IMG/VR virus record: IMGVR_UViG_3300033405_000018
Coordinates: 1-59,278 of that record
Origin: a virus
Lineage: Duplodnaviria; Caudoviricetes
DNA length: 59,278 nt
Reading direction: 5' to 3' (one strand)
Every line of letters begins with the position of its first letter. Position 1 is the first letter of the stretch. Shown here piece by piece: positions 706-7,574 of the stretch. The translations under genes were made by a program, and so were the position numbers. The notes beneath the pieces are model-generated. The model saw only the letters and a list, made by a program, of their open reading frames with translations, was not told the origin of the DNA and made no database searches.

Positions 706-1476
706 TTACTCGCCCCGTTCAATCTCTTGCTCGGCCAGTTGGCAGAAGAACGAGCACGAGAAGTTCGGTTCATGCTGCATATCGCCACGTCCTGCTGGAA
801 GTTCGGCAAGCATCATGCGCTCGCCGATCCGTGGCCCAGATCGGAACCGAAGGAAGTTTGCGCCGGGGCCGATGCCCTCTTGGATGCCTTGGATTGTCAC
901 GAAGCGTTCGGGGAAGTCCTCGCGGATGTTCTGCCAGTATGCTTGTCCACCTTTGACGCATCCGATGCAGTTCGCATTATTGTAGCCGAGCCGGTACATC
1001 ATCGGCAGTTCAATTCCGGCCCGCTCGATCATGGCGAGGCAGTCGTCTTTGCCAAGGTCACGTTCGATCAAAGGGGCGCGAAAGTTCTCATCGGGAAAGT
1101 TCTCGCAAAGCGTATCCATGCGGTCCCACTCTTCACGAGTGAATCCGATCACGTTCATATCGCCGGGTTGCGCGACAGTTGCAAGCAGTGACCGCTTGAG
1201 AGCCAATGAGCATGGCGCACCACGTAGACCCTTCATGAACTGCTTGCGCCGCCAAACCTCATCGGTGGACGCGCCGTACTTTTCATTCCGCAGGACCATA
1301 ATCGAGTGCCCAAACCACTTTTCGCAGTCGGCAAGAAAGCGGCGATTGTCCTCGTGCTCTTCTTTGATGAAGGCATTGACGATGAGAACGTCTTCGGGGG
1401 CATAAGCTGCGAGGATTAGTTTTGTAGCGACTGCCGATGCTGCCCCACATGAGAACTGACAAACCATTCTGCTCAT
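706..1476 (-). CDS. PAPS-reductase-like (PP-loop/adenine nucleotide alpha-hydrolase) phage protein
   Basis: N-terminal FSCGAASAVA PP-loop-like motif, EHEDN, GAPC, YRLGYNNANCIGCVKGG Cys cluster. Confidence 0.65.
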   Translation of the reverse strand: MSRMVCQFSCGAASAVATKLILAAYAPEDVLIVNAFIKEEHEDNRRFLADCEKWFGHSIMVLRNEKYGASTDEVWRRKQFMKGLRGAPCSLALKRSLLATVAQPGDMNVIGFTREEWDRMDTLCENFPDENFRAPLIERDLGKDDCLAMIERAGIELPMMYRLGYNNANCIGCVKGGQAYWQNIREDFPERFVTIQGIQEGIGPGANFLRFRSGPRIGERMMLAELPAGRGDMQHEPNFSCSFFCQLAEQEIERGE

Positions 1477-2949: not shown

Positions 2950-3486
2950 TGATAAGGTCTCCTGAGTGAACCATCGGCATCCCCCGGCACAAGGGCCTTG
3001 GCGCATTGTTTATCAGGTATAGACAATCATGGGGTCTTAAATCAGGACACATCAGCTTAGTTTCCTTGAATGTGCCATACGACCGGGACGTAGCCGTTTT
3101 ACAGGATCGAGTACCTGTCCGTTGCCCGGATTTCGCAGTGTGTCTGATTCATCGGTGCCTTTTTCCGTACCCCGCCATGCTCAAGCGACCCGTTATTCAT
3201 TTTGGAGAGAGTGTCGCGAACTCACCAGATTTCGATATTTTGAAATCTTGCCTATACCTAAGCGAATTCAGTGTGGCACATTTGAACGATTTGTGCAATA
3301 ATAATTTTGCGGGGTGGCCTGCCAACACCCTACGTGCCATGCCTAAGCAACCTGCCACGAACACCCCGCACCTTTCCTTGATAAACAGCGCAGTTGAACC
3401 ATCAGAGAGCCCCGAGCCAACCAGCCGGGGCTTTTCTGTTGGGCATCAGGACTCAAAACGCCTACAATGTCCACGAGGTGACCACC

Positions 3487-3993
3487 ATGGACTTCCCATT
3501 CTCCACCGGAGATTATCAAAGCTCAGACGTTGCAGACGGTTTCAGTCCTGTGAACGTTGATAAACTCTCTGAATCGCTGAACGCGCTGCTGGCCGACTGC
3601 TTTGCTTTGTACCTGAAAACAAAAAACTTCCACTGGCATATGACCGGCCCGCACTTCCGCGACTGGCACCTGATGCTAGACGAGCAGGCCGCGCAGATTT
3701 ACGGCATCACCGATGACATTGCGGAGCGCGTGCGGAAGATCGGCGGGAGCACGATCAAGTCCATCGGCCAGATTGCCCGGTTGCAGCAGATTCAGGACTC
3801 AGACGAGCCCGGCCCGGCACCAGAGATGATGCTCAAGGAGCTTCTGGCCGACAACAGGACCCTCATCACCCAACTGCGCAGCGCCCATACAGTCTGTGCC
3901 TTGGCAGACGACTACGCCTCAACTGCAATGATTGAGGTGTGGATCGACGAGGCGGAGCGGCGCGCGTGGTTTTTGTTTGAAGCAACGCGATAA
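3487..3993 (+). CDS. dps: Dps family DNA-protection/ferritin-like protein
   Basis: LYLKTKNFHWHMTGPHFRDWHLMLDEQ, DDIAERVRKIGG, EAERRAWFL; RBS GAGGTG before ATG 3487. Confidence 0.95.
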   Translation: MDFPFSTGDYQSSDVADGFSPVNVDKLSESLNALLADCFALYLKTKNFHWHMTGPHFRDWHLMLDEQAAQIYGITDDIAERVRKIGGSTIKSIGQIARLQQIQDSDEPGPAPEMMLKELLADNRTLITQLRSAHTVCALADDYASTAMIEVWIDEAERRAWFLFEATR

Positions 3994-3996
3994 CCG

Positions 3997-4005
3997 TGGT
4001 ACATT
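3997..4005 (+). promoter_or_regulatory. Extended -10 promoter for the tmRNA
   Basis: TG-G-TACATT directly upstream of the structured RNA. Confidence 0.5.
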
Positions 4006-4011
4006 TATCAA

Positions 4012-4309
4012 CATTGAGTTCACGTCCTCGTTTGACGTGATGGTGGAGGCGCTCCACAAAACACCGTGAAGCCCCAAAAGTAAGCCTGTCAACGCTGTAC
4101 GGATGTGATTTCGGACGTGGGTTCGACTCCCACCGGCTCCACCATGAGGGGCCGTCCAGGTTTCGACGGAATCAAGCAAGTGCAGTCTCAGGCCGGGATT
4201 GATGCTCACCGTAACGAGAATCAAAACCACAATGGCCGACTCTTTTGAGTTGCCAGTGGCGGCCTAAACAACCGTCCGAGTGGCTGGAACTTGGGAACAG
4301 AATCCAGTG
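4012..4309 (+). ncRNA. ssrA: Circularly permuted (two-piece) tmRNA; tag (A)ADSFELPVAA
   Basis: 3' half comes first: GGAC-GTGGG TTCGACT CCCAC-CGGCTCC-A-CCA (to 4144). Then TGA, then 5' end GGGGCCG (4148) giving a G3:U70 acceptor stem, GGTTTCGAC loop, P2 pairings, and tag ORF 4235-4267 ending VAA-TAA. Outer boundaries approximate. Confidence 0.92.
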
Positions 4310-4312
4310 CGC

Positions 4313-4343
4313 GGCGCCTCACTTCGGTGGGGCGTTCGTGTTT
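4313..4343 (+). terminator. Hairpin closing the tmRNA transcript
   Basis: GGCGCCTCAC-TTCG-GTGGGGCGTT (cUUCGg loop); weak U tail. Confidence 0.55.
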
Positions 4344-4535
4344 CAGGACTCAAGATGCTTTATAATCCCGTCATGGTGGTAAATCCAATGGCCGACAGGA
4401 CCCAAAAGACACTCCCCAAGCCCCGAGTCCAGCTCTTCGTACACCTCTTGGTGTGTGAGCATGGCTCGGCCTTGCGTTCGGAGCGCGTCCTGATCCTGCC
4501 GGCGAAGCGGGCGGCGTAGCCGCCGGAGGCAAACG

Positions 4536-4748
4536 ATGAACCTGATCGAAGGTATTCAGCAAAAATGCAAATTCATTCGCGAAGAGATCATCCCCGCCTA
4601 TGACGAGATCGGCGCGGCTGGAATGTTCGGGAAGATGGCATTACAAGCGGACATCAAGAAGGGCGAACAAGCCATTGCTGGCGGCGACACAATTGAGATG
4701 CTGCGCGTATACAAGGAACTCGAAAGCACCTGCGAAACAGCACTATAG
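4536..4748 (+). CDS. Hypothetical protein
   Basis: GGAGG RBS, 70 aa ORF. Confidence 0.65.
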   Translation: MNLIEGIQQKCKFIREEIIPAYDEIGAAGMFGKMALQADIKKGEQAIAGGDTIEMLRVYKELESTCETAL

Positions 4749-4764
4749 AAGGGTTAATAAACTC

Positions 4765-5196
4765 ATGGCAAACCTCGTAAAAGGCCCTCCACCTCGTACA
4801 AATCGCGCCCCTAAAACGCGTGCGAGGTTTCTTGACGCCTTGAAATCGACGGGGAACATCACTAAAGCCTGCAAATTGAGCAGACTCCCGCGGCGCACCG
4901 CTTATGACTGGCGTCGTGAGGATGAGCAGTTCAAACAGGACTGGGATGATGCGCTGGTGGAGGGTGAGGGGCTGCTTGAAGACGAAGCAAAGCGCCGGGC
5001 CTATGAGGGCGTAAAGAAGCCTGTCTACCAAGGCGGCGCGCGGGTTGGCTACGTACAGGAGTACAGCGACACACTTCTGATCTTCCTGCTCAAGGGCACG
5101 AACAAGGCGAAGTATGGTGATCGCACCACGCTGGCCGGCGACAAAGACAATCCCGTCCAAGTGAACGTCCTTGATGCCATAATCAAGGGAGAATGA
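4765..5196 (+). CDS. terS: Terminase small subunit
   Basis: FLDALKSTGNITKACK...RRTAYDWR HTH, LEDEAKRRAYEGV, YSDTLLIFLLKG; overlaps the terL start. Confidence 0.85.
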   Translation: MANLVKGPPPRTNRAPKTRARFLDALKSTGNITKACKLSRLPRRTAYDWRREDEQFKQDWDDALVEGEGLLEDEAKRRAYEGVKKPVYQGGARVGYVQEYSDTLLIFLLKGTNKAKYGDRTTLAGDKDNPVQVNVLDAIIKGE

Positions 5197-6923
5197 AGCC
5201 GCTCACTGTAGTACAGAAGGCCAAAATCCGTAGTACACTCGTGGACCCGATAAAGTTTGTACTACATTGGCTCGGGTCCGACTTGTGGAGCGTGCAAAAG
5301 GCCATCTGCAAGGCGCTGCTCAAGCCACAGGCGAAGGTCAACGTCAAGGCGTGCCACTCGTCCGGAAAGACGTTCCTCGCGGCGCAGATCACCCTCTGGT
5401 GGCTTGCGCGGTATGAGAACGCCATCGTGGTGACCACGGCGCCCACGAAAAAACAGGTTGAGGTCCTGATGTGGGGTGAAATCCACAAGGCCCTCGCCAA
5501 GAGCAAGTATCCCTTCCCTGAAGCAAACCTCACAAAGCTGGAGTTCGACAAGAAGAAGTACCCGATGCGGTACGCGCTGGGCTTCACGACGACCGTCCAA
5601 CAGCAGGACGAGGGCGTAAAGTTCCAGGGATTTCATGCCGGCCACGTGCTCATTATCATCGACGAAGCCCCTGGCGTTGATCCGAAGATCATCGAAGCGA
5701 TTGAGGGCATCCGGGCGGGCGGCGATGTCCGCATCCTGAAGCTCGGCAACCCTACCATTTCGTCTGGCGCCTTCTATGACGAGTTCCACAGCAAGCGAGC
5801 CAGCATCCAGCCGTTCACAATCAGCGCGTTCGACACGCCCAACTTTGAGGGAATCAAGCTTTCCTATGAGGCTCAGGACTCAGAAGGTGCTCCAATCACC
5901 GTAACGCTCGGTGATCCCAACGGCCGCGACCTGATGGACCTGACTGAAGAAGAGCTTGACCAGAACGTGATGCCTTGGCTGACCACCAGGCGCTGGGTGA
6001 AAGAGAGGTTTGAGGAGTGGGGACCGGGAGACTTCCGCTGGGATTCACGCGTGATGGGAGACTTCCCATCTCAGAGTCCTGATGCCCTGCTGTCTCTGGC
6101 ATGGCTGGAGCGTGCGCAGCGGGACACGCGAACGTTCGAGGGCAAGGTAGACATCGGCATCGACGTGGCCGGTCCTGGCGAAGATGAAACGGTCATGGTG
6201 GCCCGCTGTGGATTCCAGATTCTCGAAATCACCGGCTGGGGCAATCCAGATCCCCGCGGCGAACTGGTGAGCGCGTTGCGGAAGTATGGAGACAGAATCG
6301 GGACTCTCAACGTGGACTCGGCCGGTATCGGATACTACCTGCACAAGCACCTGCAAGACCTTGGCTTCCCCTCCAACCCGGTCAACGTGGGCGAGTCGCC
6401 GGCGGACAAAGAGCAGTTCGTGAATCTGAAGGCTGAGCTGTACTGGGGTTTGCGGATGCGGGCAAAGAGTGGAGACTTGGCAGGACTCGAAGACGAAACG
6501 GCCATCTCGCAGCTTGCCAGCATCCGGTGGAAGCCGAACAGCCGCGGGCAAACGGAGATTGAGTCCAAGGAAGCGATGCGAAAAAGGGGTGTCAAGAGTC
6601 CCGACCGGGCCGAGGCAATCATGCTGGCATTTGCCAAGGTGGCAAAGAACGGCGCTGGGCTGTTGGAATACTACCAAGATGCGCTGGCGGTGCAAACTGG
6701 TGGAGATCAGAACTCAAACCCCAAGACTCCCGGGTTTAGACCTGCCCCAACCACCCCCACACCCGTCAAGGCACCAGCCATGACCGCCTACAGCCGTGCT
6801 ATGGCCGCCCTTGCACCCCAAGACCTGTGTGACCATTGCGGCAAACCTCTCGGCGATACGGTGGTTGAAGAAGGCATACGGCGGATGCACCCGGACTGCG
6901 CGAAGCCCTCGTGGGCGTCCTGA
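5193..6923 (+). CDS. terL: Terminase large subunit
   Basis: Walker A ACHSSGKT, Walker B IIIDEA, LGNP, nuclease GIDVA and SPDRAEA. Confidence 0.93.
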   Translation: MKPLTVVQKAKIRSTLVDPIKFVLHWLGSDLWSVQKAICKALLKPQAKVNVKACHSSGKTFLAAQITLWWLARYENAIVVTTAPTKKQVEVLMWGEIHKALAKSKYPFPEANLTKLEFDKKKYPMRYALGFTTTVQQQDEGVKFQGFHAGHVLIIIDEAPGVDPKIIEAIEGIRAGGDVRILKLGNPTISSGAFYDEFHSKRASIQPFTISAFDTPNFEGIKLSYEAQDSEGAPITVTLGDPNGRDLMDLTEEELDQNVMPWLTTRRWVKERFEEWGPGDFRWDSRVMGDFPSQSPDALLSLAWLERAQRDTRTFEGKVDIGIDVAGPGEDETVMVARCGFQILEITGWGNPDPRGELVSALRKYGDRIGTLNVDSAGIGYYLHKHLQDLGFPSNPVNVGESPADKEQFVNLKAELYWGLRMRAKSGDLAGLEDETAISQLASIRWKPNSRGQTEIESKEAMRKRGVKSPDRAEAIMLAFAKVAKNGAGLLEYYQDALAVQTGGDQNSNPKTPGFRPAPTTPTPVKAPAMTAYSRAMAALAPQDLCDHCGKPLGDTVVEEGIRRMHPDCAKPSWAS

Positions 6924-7223: not shown

Positions 7224-7574
7224 ATGAATCACCAGCACTTGCCACAAGGGACCGCAGATGATCCGTTTCGACTTGATAACCTTCATCAAGCCGTTCGCAC
7301 CGCCCAACAGTTCGACCGTAAAATCTGGTGCAGAATTGCGAGCGACGATAAGCACCTGTTTGAAGTCTTCCCCGGCGGACGCAATATCGCTTGGCCGAGG
7401 GAGATGATTGAGCGGTGCCGCAGACTTCAGGAGCCACTCGCAGAGGGGTATCGGTGCCGACACGATTGGGCTACTCATCAGGACTCTGATCCAACGGCAG
7501 CCGGATTGATTATTGAAGAATGGCGTCAATGCACGAAGTGTGGTCAGATTCGGGAACCCGCATTGATACACTAG
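7224..7574 (+). CDS. Hypothetical protein
   Basis: GAGGAG RBS; C-terminal CRHDW...CTKCG. Confidence 0.6.
   Translation: MNHQHLPQGTADDPFRLDNLHQAVRTAQQFDRKIWCRIASDDKHLFEVFPGGRNIAWPREMIERCRRLQEPLAEGYRCRHDWATHQDSDPTAAGLIIEEWRQCTKCGQIREPALIH

Follow-up and report, generated by a model that had tools for sequence, protein, structure and literature searches.

The question raised by the locus studied here is whether a phage genome can carry a complete, circularly permuted gene for transfer-messenger RNA (tmRNA) with only 3 nucleotides (nt) between its two halves, and whether so short an intervening segment calls for an origin or a processing route of its own. The locus lies in the IMG/VR record IMGVR_UViG_3300033405_000018, a complete virus record of 59,278 base pairs (bp) with direct terminal repeats, the whole of which is called here the window. 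A preliminary description, made from the letters of the sequence, had proposed a phage-encoded permuted tmRNA with a 3-nt segment, possibly the product of a separate permutation event and of an unusual way of processing. The first part of this proposal was borne out and the second was not. We consider it quite probable that the locus is a functional-looking two-piece tmRNA gene, and that it forms an optional cassette which a contractile-tailed peat phage with a complete genome of 59 kb has between its Dps-like gene and its terminase genes.

Identity and structure of the tmRNA gene

When the whole window was analyzed with ARAGORN, one gene was returned, a permuted tmRNA (tmRNA*) at 4052-4358 on the + strand, with the tag ADSFELPVAA followed by a stop. 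The Rfam model of permuted tmRNAs (RF04321, tmRNA_permuted) matched with 97.7 bits (cut-off 47), and the full model (positions 1-213) was aligned to 4084-4267. Read along the sequence, the gene has first the acceptor half (T arm and CCA), then the intervening segment, and then the 5′ half. The acceptor piece, at 4084-4144 (+), is delimited by the Rfam alignment, the fold and covariation; it contains the 3′ strands of the P2 pairings (GCCTG, GCTGTAC and TGATTTCG), the T arm GTGGG-TTCGACT-CCCAC, the acceptor 3′ strand CGGCTCC, the discriminator A and an encoded CCA (4142-4144). The intervening segment is the trinucleotide TGA (4145-4147, +), which would be expected to be removed in maturation. 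The coding piece, at 4148-4338 (+), is supported by RF01850 (beta_tmRNA), RF04321 and the fold; it begins with the acceptor 5′ strand GGGGCCG, which provides the G3 of a G3:U70 pair, and continues with GGTTTCGAC, the P2 5′ strands, a small hairpin, the tag frame and a terminal hairpin. The tag frame occupies 4235-4267 (+) and consists of the resume codon GCC, which falls on GCa in the Rfam consensus, the residues ADSFELPVAA, with a non-polar C-terminus, and the stop TAA; ARAGORN and the translation agree on it. The G+C-rich 3′-terminal hairpin, at 4312-4335 (+), reads GGCGCCTCAC-TTCG-GTGGGGCGTT, is followed by CGTGTTT and matches the terminal hairpin of the beta_tmRNA model.

The minimum free energy (MFE) fold of 4084-4338 gave three P2 helices, GCCUG/CAGGC, GCUGUAC/GUGCAGU and UGAUUUCG/CGGAAUCA (5, 7 and 8 bp), together with a 5-bp T stem and the 3′-terminal hairpin. 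In the same fold, the acceptor stem GGGGCCG/CGGCUCC has 7 bp, with G3:U70 among them, and is closed by the 7-nt loop ACCAUGA. The GGUUCGA motif is intact as well. The structural claims of the preliminary description, namely an acceptor half ending at 4144 and a 5′ half starting at 4148, an acceptor stem closed by a 7-nt loop in the precursor, an intact G3:U70, three P2 segments and the tag itself, were thus all reproduced. When the window gene was aligned with those of seven viral relatives, 15 of the 31 predicted pairs were found changed on both sides, and the G3:U70 pair was kept in all eight sequences. Concerning the CCA-TGA-GGGG junction, a separate Logan contig from a peat run (X2, possibly the source sample) covers 3700-4251, including the junction, with no differences, so the junction is not peculiar to one assembly. 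With these results the observation of a permuted tmRNA gene is confirmed, and the gene is real and, as judged by its sequence, functional-looking.

A variable slot among close relatives

The surroundings of the gene were compared in its close relatives, defined as the 44 viral contig loci whose terminase large subunit (TerL) is at least 93% identical, by blastn of 3394-4600 against them. Between the stop codon of the Dps-like gene and a conserved TATAAT (4361-4366), these phages have a slot that holds optional cassettes. In the window, the slot contains an accessory cassette at 3994-4353 (+), which takes in the promoter-like region, the two pieces of the tmRNA and the hairpin at its end, and this unit is absent en bloc in some near-identical phages. 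The slot is empty in eight relatives (L234, L235, L236, L241, L243, L244, L247 and L261), in which the flanks, at about 3983-3989 and about 4347-4354, are adjacent. It holds a cassette of about 194 nt, with a 66-codon open reading frame that starts ATGAACCCTGCC, in nine (L246, L254, L258, L260, L264, L265, L267, L271 and L274), and an insert of about 1.3 kb in one (L240). A tmRNA occupies it in eight others (L237, L242, L245, L251, L253, L257, L266 and L272); two more (L249 and L263) have the slot at the contig end, with the 3′ part of the tmRNA alone, and the contigs of the remaining 16 loci do not reach it.

The spacer of the relatives' tmRNA is 4 nt long in L251, 65 nt in L237, L242, L245, L253 and L272, 80 nt in L257 and 120 nt in L266. 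The long spacers start with AAG and end with CTTTGGT, and the segment ACCAAAG pairs with CTTTGGT. The relatives' tags have 27-28 residues (AKNTDSAKNAKVLAFPARPAVALQMAA and ATLKSVGTKFAKLLTFPVSEPVALPMAA). By blastn, the window gene matches that of L052, a locus on the L251 contig, with 85% identity over 149 nt and 96% over a further 50 nt, and that of the viral locus L029 with 77% over 241 nt; bacterial genes match it at about 78-86% over 55-71 nt, in the tRNA-like core alone. These comparisons describe the window tmRNA as a dispensable, modular cassette with remodelled spacer and tag, and not as a recent copy of any sampled bacterial gene. Contigs of relatives from two peat metatranscriptomes (X23 and X24), whose libraries may contain DNA, cover the same slot; they show neither transcription of the window gene nor RNA ends, and no conclusion is drawn from them or from their depths. 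One from X24 joins 3972 to 4354 with 19 other letters between them, which is the form without tmRNA, while one from X23 has 136 letters against 42 in the window, which suggests a long-spacer relative. Further contigs from X24 continue past the CCA into a different short spacer.

It could be argued that such a cassette is a decaying passenger, that is, a recently acquired or recombined and unused unit, a pseudogene in the making or mere recombination or attachment sequence. Its presence or absence among near-identical phages would fit this, as would a window tag 17-18 residues shorter than those of the relatives and the failure of a consensus scan to call a promoter or a terminator. We find this decidedly unlikely: all the defining helices, the G3:U70 pair, the GGUUCGA motif and the tag frame are intact, and the compensatory changes among relatives argue for selection on structure. 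Moreover, the window tag is similar to AVPFELPMAA, also of 10 residues, kept in another viral lineage (L029, L084 and L108), and no tyrosine integrase that might use an attachment site was found in the window.

Length of the intervening segment

The functional-looking two-piece gene has a spacer of 3 nt, and how unusual this is was estimated by pattern searches. Viral contigs were scanned for TCCACCA followed, after 0-30 nt, by GGGGNNGNNNNGGTTTCGAC; 106 of the 112 matches have a tRNA-like domain directly upstream and are permuted genes. The spacer is 3-6 nt long in 27 of these 106 genes (3 nt in one gene, 4 nt in fifteen, 5 nt in eight and 6 nt in three). The same pattern with 0-12 nt gave at least 120 matches in bacterial and archaeal genome contigs. 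Among the matches listed there are 70 permuted genes, 58 of which have a 3-4-nt spacer; nearly all of these 58 belong to Accumulibacter, Dechloromonas, Azonexus, Propionivibrio and other Rhodocyclaceae, most have the tag ANDERFALAA, and 3-nt spacers (TGC, TGG) are present in L116, L163 and L220. The short-spacer genes of Rhodocyclaceae are the canonical beta two-piece genes, with beta_tmRNA scores such as 243.6 (L177), 234.8 (L163) and 222.4 bits (L134). No permuted gene with a spacer shorter than 3 nt was found in the viral scan or among the bacterial matches listed.

The complete genome of an Accumulibacter (G001) and a metagenome-assembled genome (MAG) of Dechloromonas (G005) gave one RF04321 match each, with the spacers CTGC and CAGG, respectively, and neither gave a match above cut-off to the standard tmRNA model (RF00023). 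Since the sole tmRNA of these bacteria has a 3-4-nt spacer, ordinary cellular enzymes must mature it. A sample not biased by the pattern was provided by 151 Rhodocyclaceae genomes, 56 of which have a permuted tmRNA. The match length, counted by hand, is 183-185 nt (the short-spacer size) in 17 of the 56, and longer in the rest. Among the best 30 of the 56 loci (L293-L322), five have an encoded CCA and 4 nt, and in at least 16 the CCA is not encoded and the spacer is a hairpin of 24-45 nt, of the form ACC(C/T)AAG...CTT(G/A)GGT. The existence of these two forms means that spacer length is labile in the bacterial lineage too. The 3-nt spacer is therefore not exceptional as far as these sequences tell; it appears as the shortest state of a very changeable spacer and should need no special processing route. 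Literature searches, which left out the two founding papers on two-piece tmRNAs, found no published statement of their spacer length.

The short spacer could also be seen as part of a decoy or inhibitor of the SmpB protein. The RNA, perhaps as an uncut precursor with its CCA locked in the 7-nt loop and so not chargeable, would titrate host SmpB and shut down host trans-translation rather than provide it. There is a precedent in mycobacteriophage DS6A, reported to have a tmRNA reduced to the tRNA-like domain, and a similar molecule is described as an inhibitor of tmRNA that perhaps titrates SmpB (PMC4131195, PMC11915505). The window phage is without an SmpB of its own, and in the fold the very short spacer does place the precursor CCA in a closed loop. 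However, a decoy would have no need of a tag frame, and the one in the window is complete, with resume codon, stop and non-polar ...VAA end, the 27-28-residue frames of the relatives being intact as well. Moreover, the short-spacer design is that of the sole tmRNA of Accumulibacter and Dechloromonas, where it is evidently matured. A decoy role seems thus very unlikely.

Subtype and descent of the gene

The reading of the locus as a functional-looking two-piece tmRNA gene in an optional cassette has to be weighed against several results that count against it. The fold energy of 4084-4338 has a z-score of only -2.46, and 5 of 200 shuffled sequences were equally stable, so that the fold by itself is weak evidence, and it is the covariance score and the comparative data that carry weight. 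A possible sigma-70-like promoter can be read by eye at 3977-4005 (+), with a weak -35 element TTGAAG (3977-3982), a 17-nt spacer, TG at 3997-3998 and a -10 element TACATT (4000-4005), and the relative L266 has TTGACA, 16 nt and TACATT at the homologous position; a scan for consensus promoters and terminators called none of either, the segment 3977-4005 included. The extended -10 (TGg-TACATT, 3997-4005) of the preliminary description keeps therefore the support of the relative and lacks that of the scan, and the hairpin at 4312-4335 stands as the 3′ hairpin of the beta model and not as a terminator, since it is without a run of five T and was not called. At least eight close relatives with both flanks covered have no tmRNA, which makes the gene dispensable. 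The public runs were compared as contigs, which cannot show RNA ends. Finally, the RF01850 score is 84.2 bits against a cut-off of 84 (4052-4338), with a 19-nt gap in the promoter block, compared with 222-244 bits in true members, and the closest viral relatives (L237, L029, L046 and L031) match alpha_tmRNA at 50.6-63.5 bits against a cut-off of 50. A beta score at the cut-off, together with relatives that match alpha, makes beta descent not secure.

Several sequence features speak in favour of the beta type, namely the length of the gene and the position of its tag (307 nt and 184-216 in the window, against 305-306 nt and 183-215 in Rhodocyclaceae), the encoded CCA followed by a short spacer, the terminal hairpin and the long-spacer design of the relatives. 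The latter is the same as that of the Rhodocyclaceae long form, which argues for descent shared with a beta-type gene. The alignable core, of about 70 nt, is too short for a tree to separate alpha from beta descent. The gene is assigned by its covariance score to the permuted tmRNA family RF04321, and to neither the beta nor the alpha subtype.

As to the origin of the gene, near identity to a bacterial two-piece lineage, which would indicate simple capture, was not found: outside the tRNA-like core, viral contigs alone align. Because bacterial matches are limited to that core and the same architecture occurs in bacteria and in other viruses, it appears that the window gene was neither simply captured in recent times nor invented independently. 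A new, independent permutation event with an unusual processing route, compatible as it is with the lack of any sampled bacterial tmRNA close to the gene outside the core and with subtype models matching at their cut-offs, is highly improbable in view of a gene length and a tag position nearly as in Rhodocyclaceae, of the same encoded CCA and 3-4-nt spacer (which Accumulibacter and Dechloromonas have in their sole tmRNA, short spacers being present also in the 27 viral genes), of relatives' ACCAAAG...CTTTGGT spacers with the design of the beta long form, and of a 3′ hairpin that fits the beta model.

Two-piece tmRNAs are known from three textbook lineages, and a permuted gene of some Acidobacteriaceae may represent a two-piece lineage outside them. 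It was found in a subset of the family (L283 in G004, L280-L282, L292 in G260, L133, L150, L170 and L209), scoring about 79-82 bits with RF04321, and it has a spacer of 11-12 nt and a 30-residue tag, ANTASVASRKSNLLTFAPRN.SAVAFAAAA. In a sample of 151 Acidobacteriaceae genomes, six have an RF04321 match that exceeds the cut-off, with about 80 bits in four cases. Searches of G004, G032, G053, G110 and G260 for a standard tmRNA gave nothing above cut-off. The neighbours of the permuted gene in G004 look ordinary (a COX3-like protein and a protein with metallo-beta-lactamase fold). Some Acidobacteriaceae thus appear to rely on a permuted gene with a tag of 30 residues, an observation that may widen the range in which two-piece tmRNAs are known.

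A broader proposal can be made only tentatively, and we hold it to be possible but doubtful. The peat phage clade, the viral contigs with tags of the ...LP(M/V)AA type or long tags of the K..LLAFP... type, and the Acidobacteriaceae group would together form a further two-piece lineage, distinct from the textbook ones, that moves between phage and host as a cassette. In this lineage, the spacer (3-120 nt) and the tag (10-30 residues) would have been repeatedly remodelled, and the window gene would be its most stripped-down member, at the lower limit of a cleavable loop.

Some additional observations on other permuted genes were made. Many viral permuted tmRNAs (among them those of L041, L043, L046, L069, L090, L099 and L008) have tags of 21-33 residues with a mid-tag K/N-(V/L)-(L/I)-(A/T)-F-(P/A/V), as in the Acidobacteriaceae tag. 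The viral locus L029, whose AVPFELPMAA is the short tag most similar to that of the window, has five tRNA genes beside its tmRNA (14-1187) and a match to the Twister-P5 ribozyme (42 bits against 37.6, at 7310-7367). In Hydrogenophaga (L164, G002) and Dyella (L169, G003), a standard tmRNA (about 200 bits) coexists with a second, permuted one. The tags of the second genes (EAKPRTANESTFLKAA and GAKPIDANDNVYDQAIAA, respectively) are identical to those of the viral contigs L057 and L039, and for this reason these second genes are probably prophage-borne copies.

Proposed maturation and function

A sequence of events can be proposed for the functional-looking two-piece gene from what is known of the family; what the sequence itself shows are the defining features of a two-piece tmRNA that can be charged and encodes a tag. 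One precursor would be transcribed, possibly from TTGAAG-17 nt-TGgTACATT at 3977-4005, and the three P2 helices would keep both halves together. Host RNase P would cleave 5′ of G4148, and host 3′ exonucleases would remove the 3-nt trailer UGA as far as the encoded CCA. The mature RNA would be charged by alanyl-tRNA synthetase via G3:U70 and delivered by host SmpB to stalled ribosomes, which would resume on GCC and append ADSFELPVAA, whose non-polar ...VAA end resembles protease-recognised tags. The benefit for the phage would most likely be an extra capacity for ribosome rescue, or an altered tagging, while host mRNAs are degraded in infection. Two roles raised in the preliminary description, phage control over rescue and proteolytic tagging and the replacement of a host tmRNA cleaved by a defence nuclease, are speculative, and the present results speak neither for nor against them.

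The near-identical phages amount to a natural allelic series, with no gene at all, with spacers of 3, 4, 65, 80 and 120 nt, and with tags of 10 versus 27-28 residues. This series could be used to test the effects of spacer and tag length, and whether the phage tmRNA aids infection.

Genome, neighbourhood and habitat

Searches against PHROG identified in the window genes for small and large terminase subunits, portal, head-morphogenesis and protease-like proteins, tail sheath, tape measure and baseplate, besides replication and modification genes (helicases, primase-like protein and methyltransferases). Since sheath, tape measure, baseplate and other phage genes are encoded, the window phage can be described as contractile-tailed and myovirus-like. 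The tmRNA is flanked by phage genes and is common to related phage contigs, so its location is bona fide phage DNA and not a bacterial fragment. No SmpB gene had been noticed in the preliminary description, and a PF01668 search of the window, with a control that matched in 10 of 14 genomes, gave likewise no match; for that reason, the phage tmRNA would need the SmpB of the host.

The gene that borders the cassette with its stop codon, at 3394-3993 (+), encodes a Dps/ferritin-like 'DNA binding protein' (PHROG 3636, E 4.4e-35; Pfam PF00210 Ferritin-like, E 3.1e-24). On the other side lie the terminase small subunit gene (terS, 4600-5196, +) and the TerL gene (5193-6923, +), which match the PHROG terminase families (PHROG 4044 and PHROG 2 for the pair). 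The perfect TATAAT at 4361-4366, which follows the cassette closely and precedes terS by about 240 nt, is conserved in all the relatives examined and is likely a promoter element for the packaging genes. Elsewhere in the window, at 706-1476 (-), there is a phosphoadenosine-phosphosulfate-reductase-like gene (PHROG 424, E 1.4e-41); as an auxiliary gene it is common in phages.

The public runs that hold the window stretch are peat metagenomes. In two runs at least 98% of the words sampled from the window are present, and both are possible sources of the record; runs with small shares, from pond, freshwater, plant and soil, were left out of account for the habitat. Concerning the host, a TerL homologue with 61% identity was found in one of 301 Acidobacteriaceae genomes (G260) and in none of 301 Rhodocyclaceae genomes. 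When 14 window proteins were compared with the 16 kb around the G260 match, TerL alone matched, and no tmRNA was found in that stretch. An Acidobacteriaceae host is a reasonable guess from weak evidence, with about an even chance of being right.

Comparison with known systems

The known genes most like that of the window in design are the short-spacer beta two-piece tmRNAs (RF01850) of Candidatus Accumulibacter phosphatis (L134) and of the Dechloromonas MAG (L177). They have in common an acceptor piece with encoded CCA, a 3-4-nt spacer, a GGGG 5′ end, near-equal gene length and tag position, a 10-residue tag ending in AA and a 3′-terminal hairpin. They differ in that the likeness, of about 80%, is confined to a core of 55-71 nt, and in that they score 222-244 bits against 84.2 for the window gene, whose promoter block is gapped in the model. 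Also, their tag is ANDERFALAA and not ADSFELPVAA, and they are chromosomal instead of phage-borne.

With the Acidobacteriaceae permuted tmRNA (L283 and L292, tag ANTASVASRKSNLLTFAPRNTSAVAFAAAA), the window gene shares an identical acceptor stem, GGGGCCG/CGGCUCC, and a 78-80% likeness over 68-69 nt. The Acidobacteriaceae tag has the pattern K..(L/V)L(A/T)FP...A..(M/A)AA in common with the long tags of the phage's close relatives, and peat is the habitat of both. On the other hand, the Acidobacteriaceae spacer has 11-12 nt and the tag 30 residues, the tRNA-like core alone aligns, and the host link is weak.

The two-piece tmRNA of Caulobacter, reportedly established by Keiler, Shapiro and Williams in 2000, is said to be the experimental paradigm of these molecules. 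It is also made as one precursor, cut into acceptor and coding pieces that are held by base pairing, and its tag also ends in ...VAA; it is of the alpha type and has a longer spacer, and it is said to be experimentally proven, while the window gene is known from sequence.

Phages with such genes have been described before. Buchholz et al. (2022) report a two-piece ssrA in the OM43 phage Melnitz and, by ARAGORN on 18,146 phage genomes, obtain 133 unique tmRNA structures, 53 of which are two-piece; they suggest that such a gene keeps the hijacked translation machinery going or marks proteins for degradation (PMC9004378). Hudson et al. (2014) give a list of phages with ssrA (PMC4131195), and the 2025 tmRNA database describes the RF04321 model and holds 79 bacteriophage and 11,946 permuted sequences (PMC11915505). 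As described, Melnitz resembles the window in that a complete permuted ssrA lies on a phage genome without integrase, the roles being proposals in both cases. It differs in being a marine, T4-like phage of 141 kb, with an ssrA reported to be alpha-like and linked to a riboswitch, whereas the window phage has 59 kb and comes from peat, its tmRNA has a 3-nt spacer, and no Rfam riboswitch matched in the window. A blastn search of 3990-4360 against 50,697 phage records gave no match, which has no bearing on the novelty of the kind. Phage-borne two-piece tmRNAs and 3-nt spacers are both already known elsewhere; what is new here is the optional cassette before terS, with its slot states and its variation of spacer and tag among near-identical phages. 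The window phage adds one more member to the growing list of phages with a two-piece tmRNA, and it corrects the view of a 3-nt spacer as exceptional.

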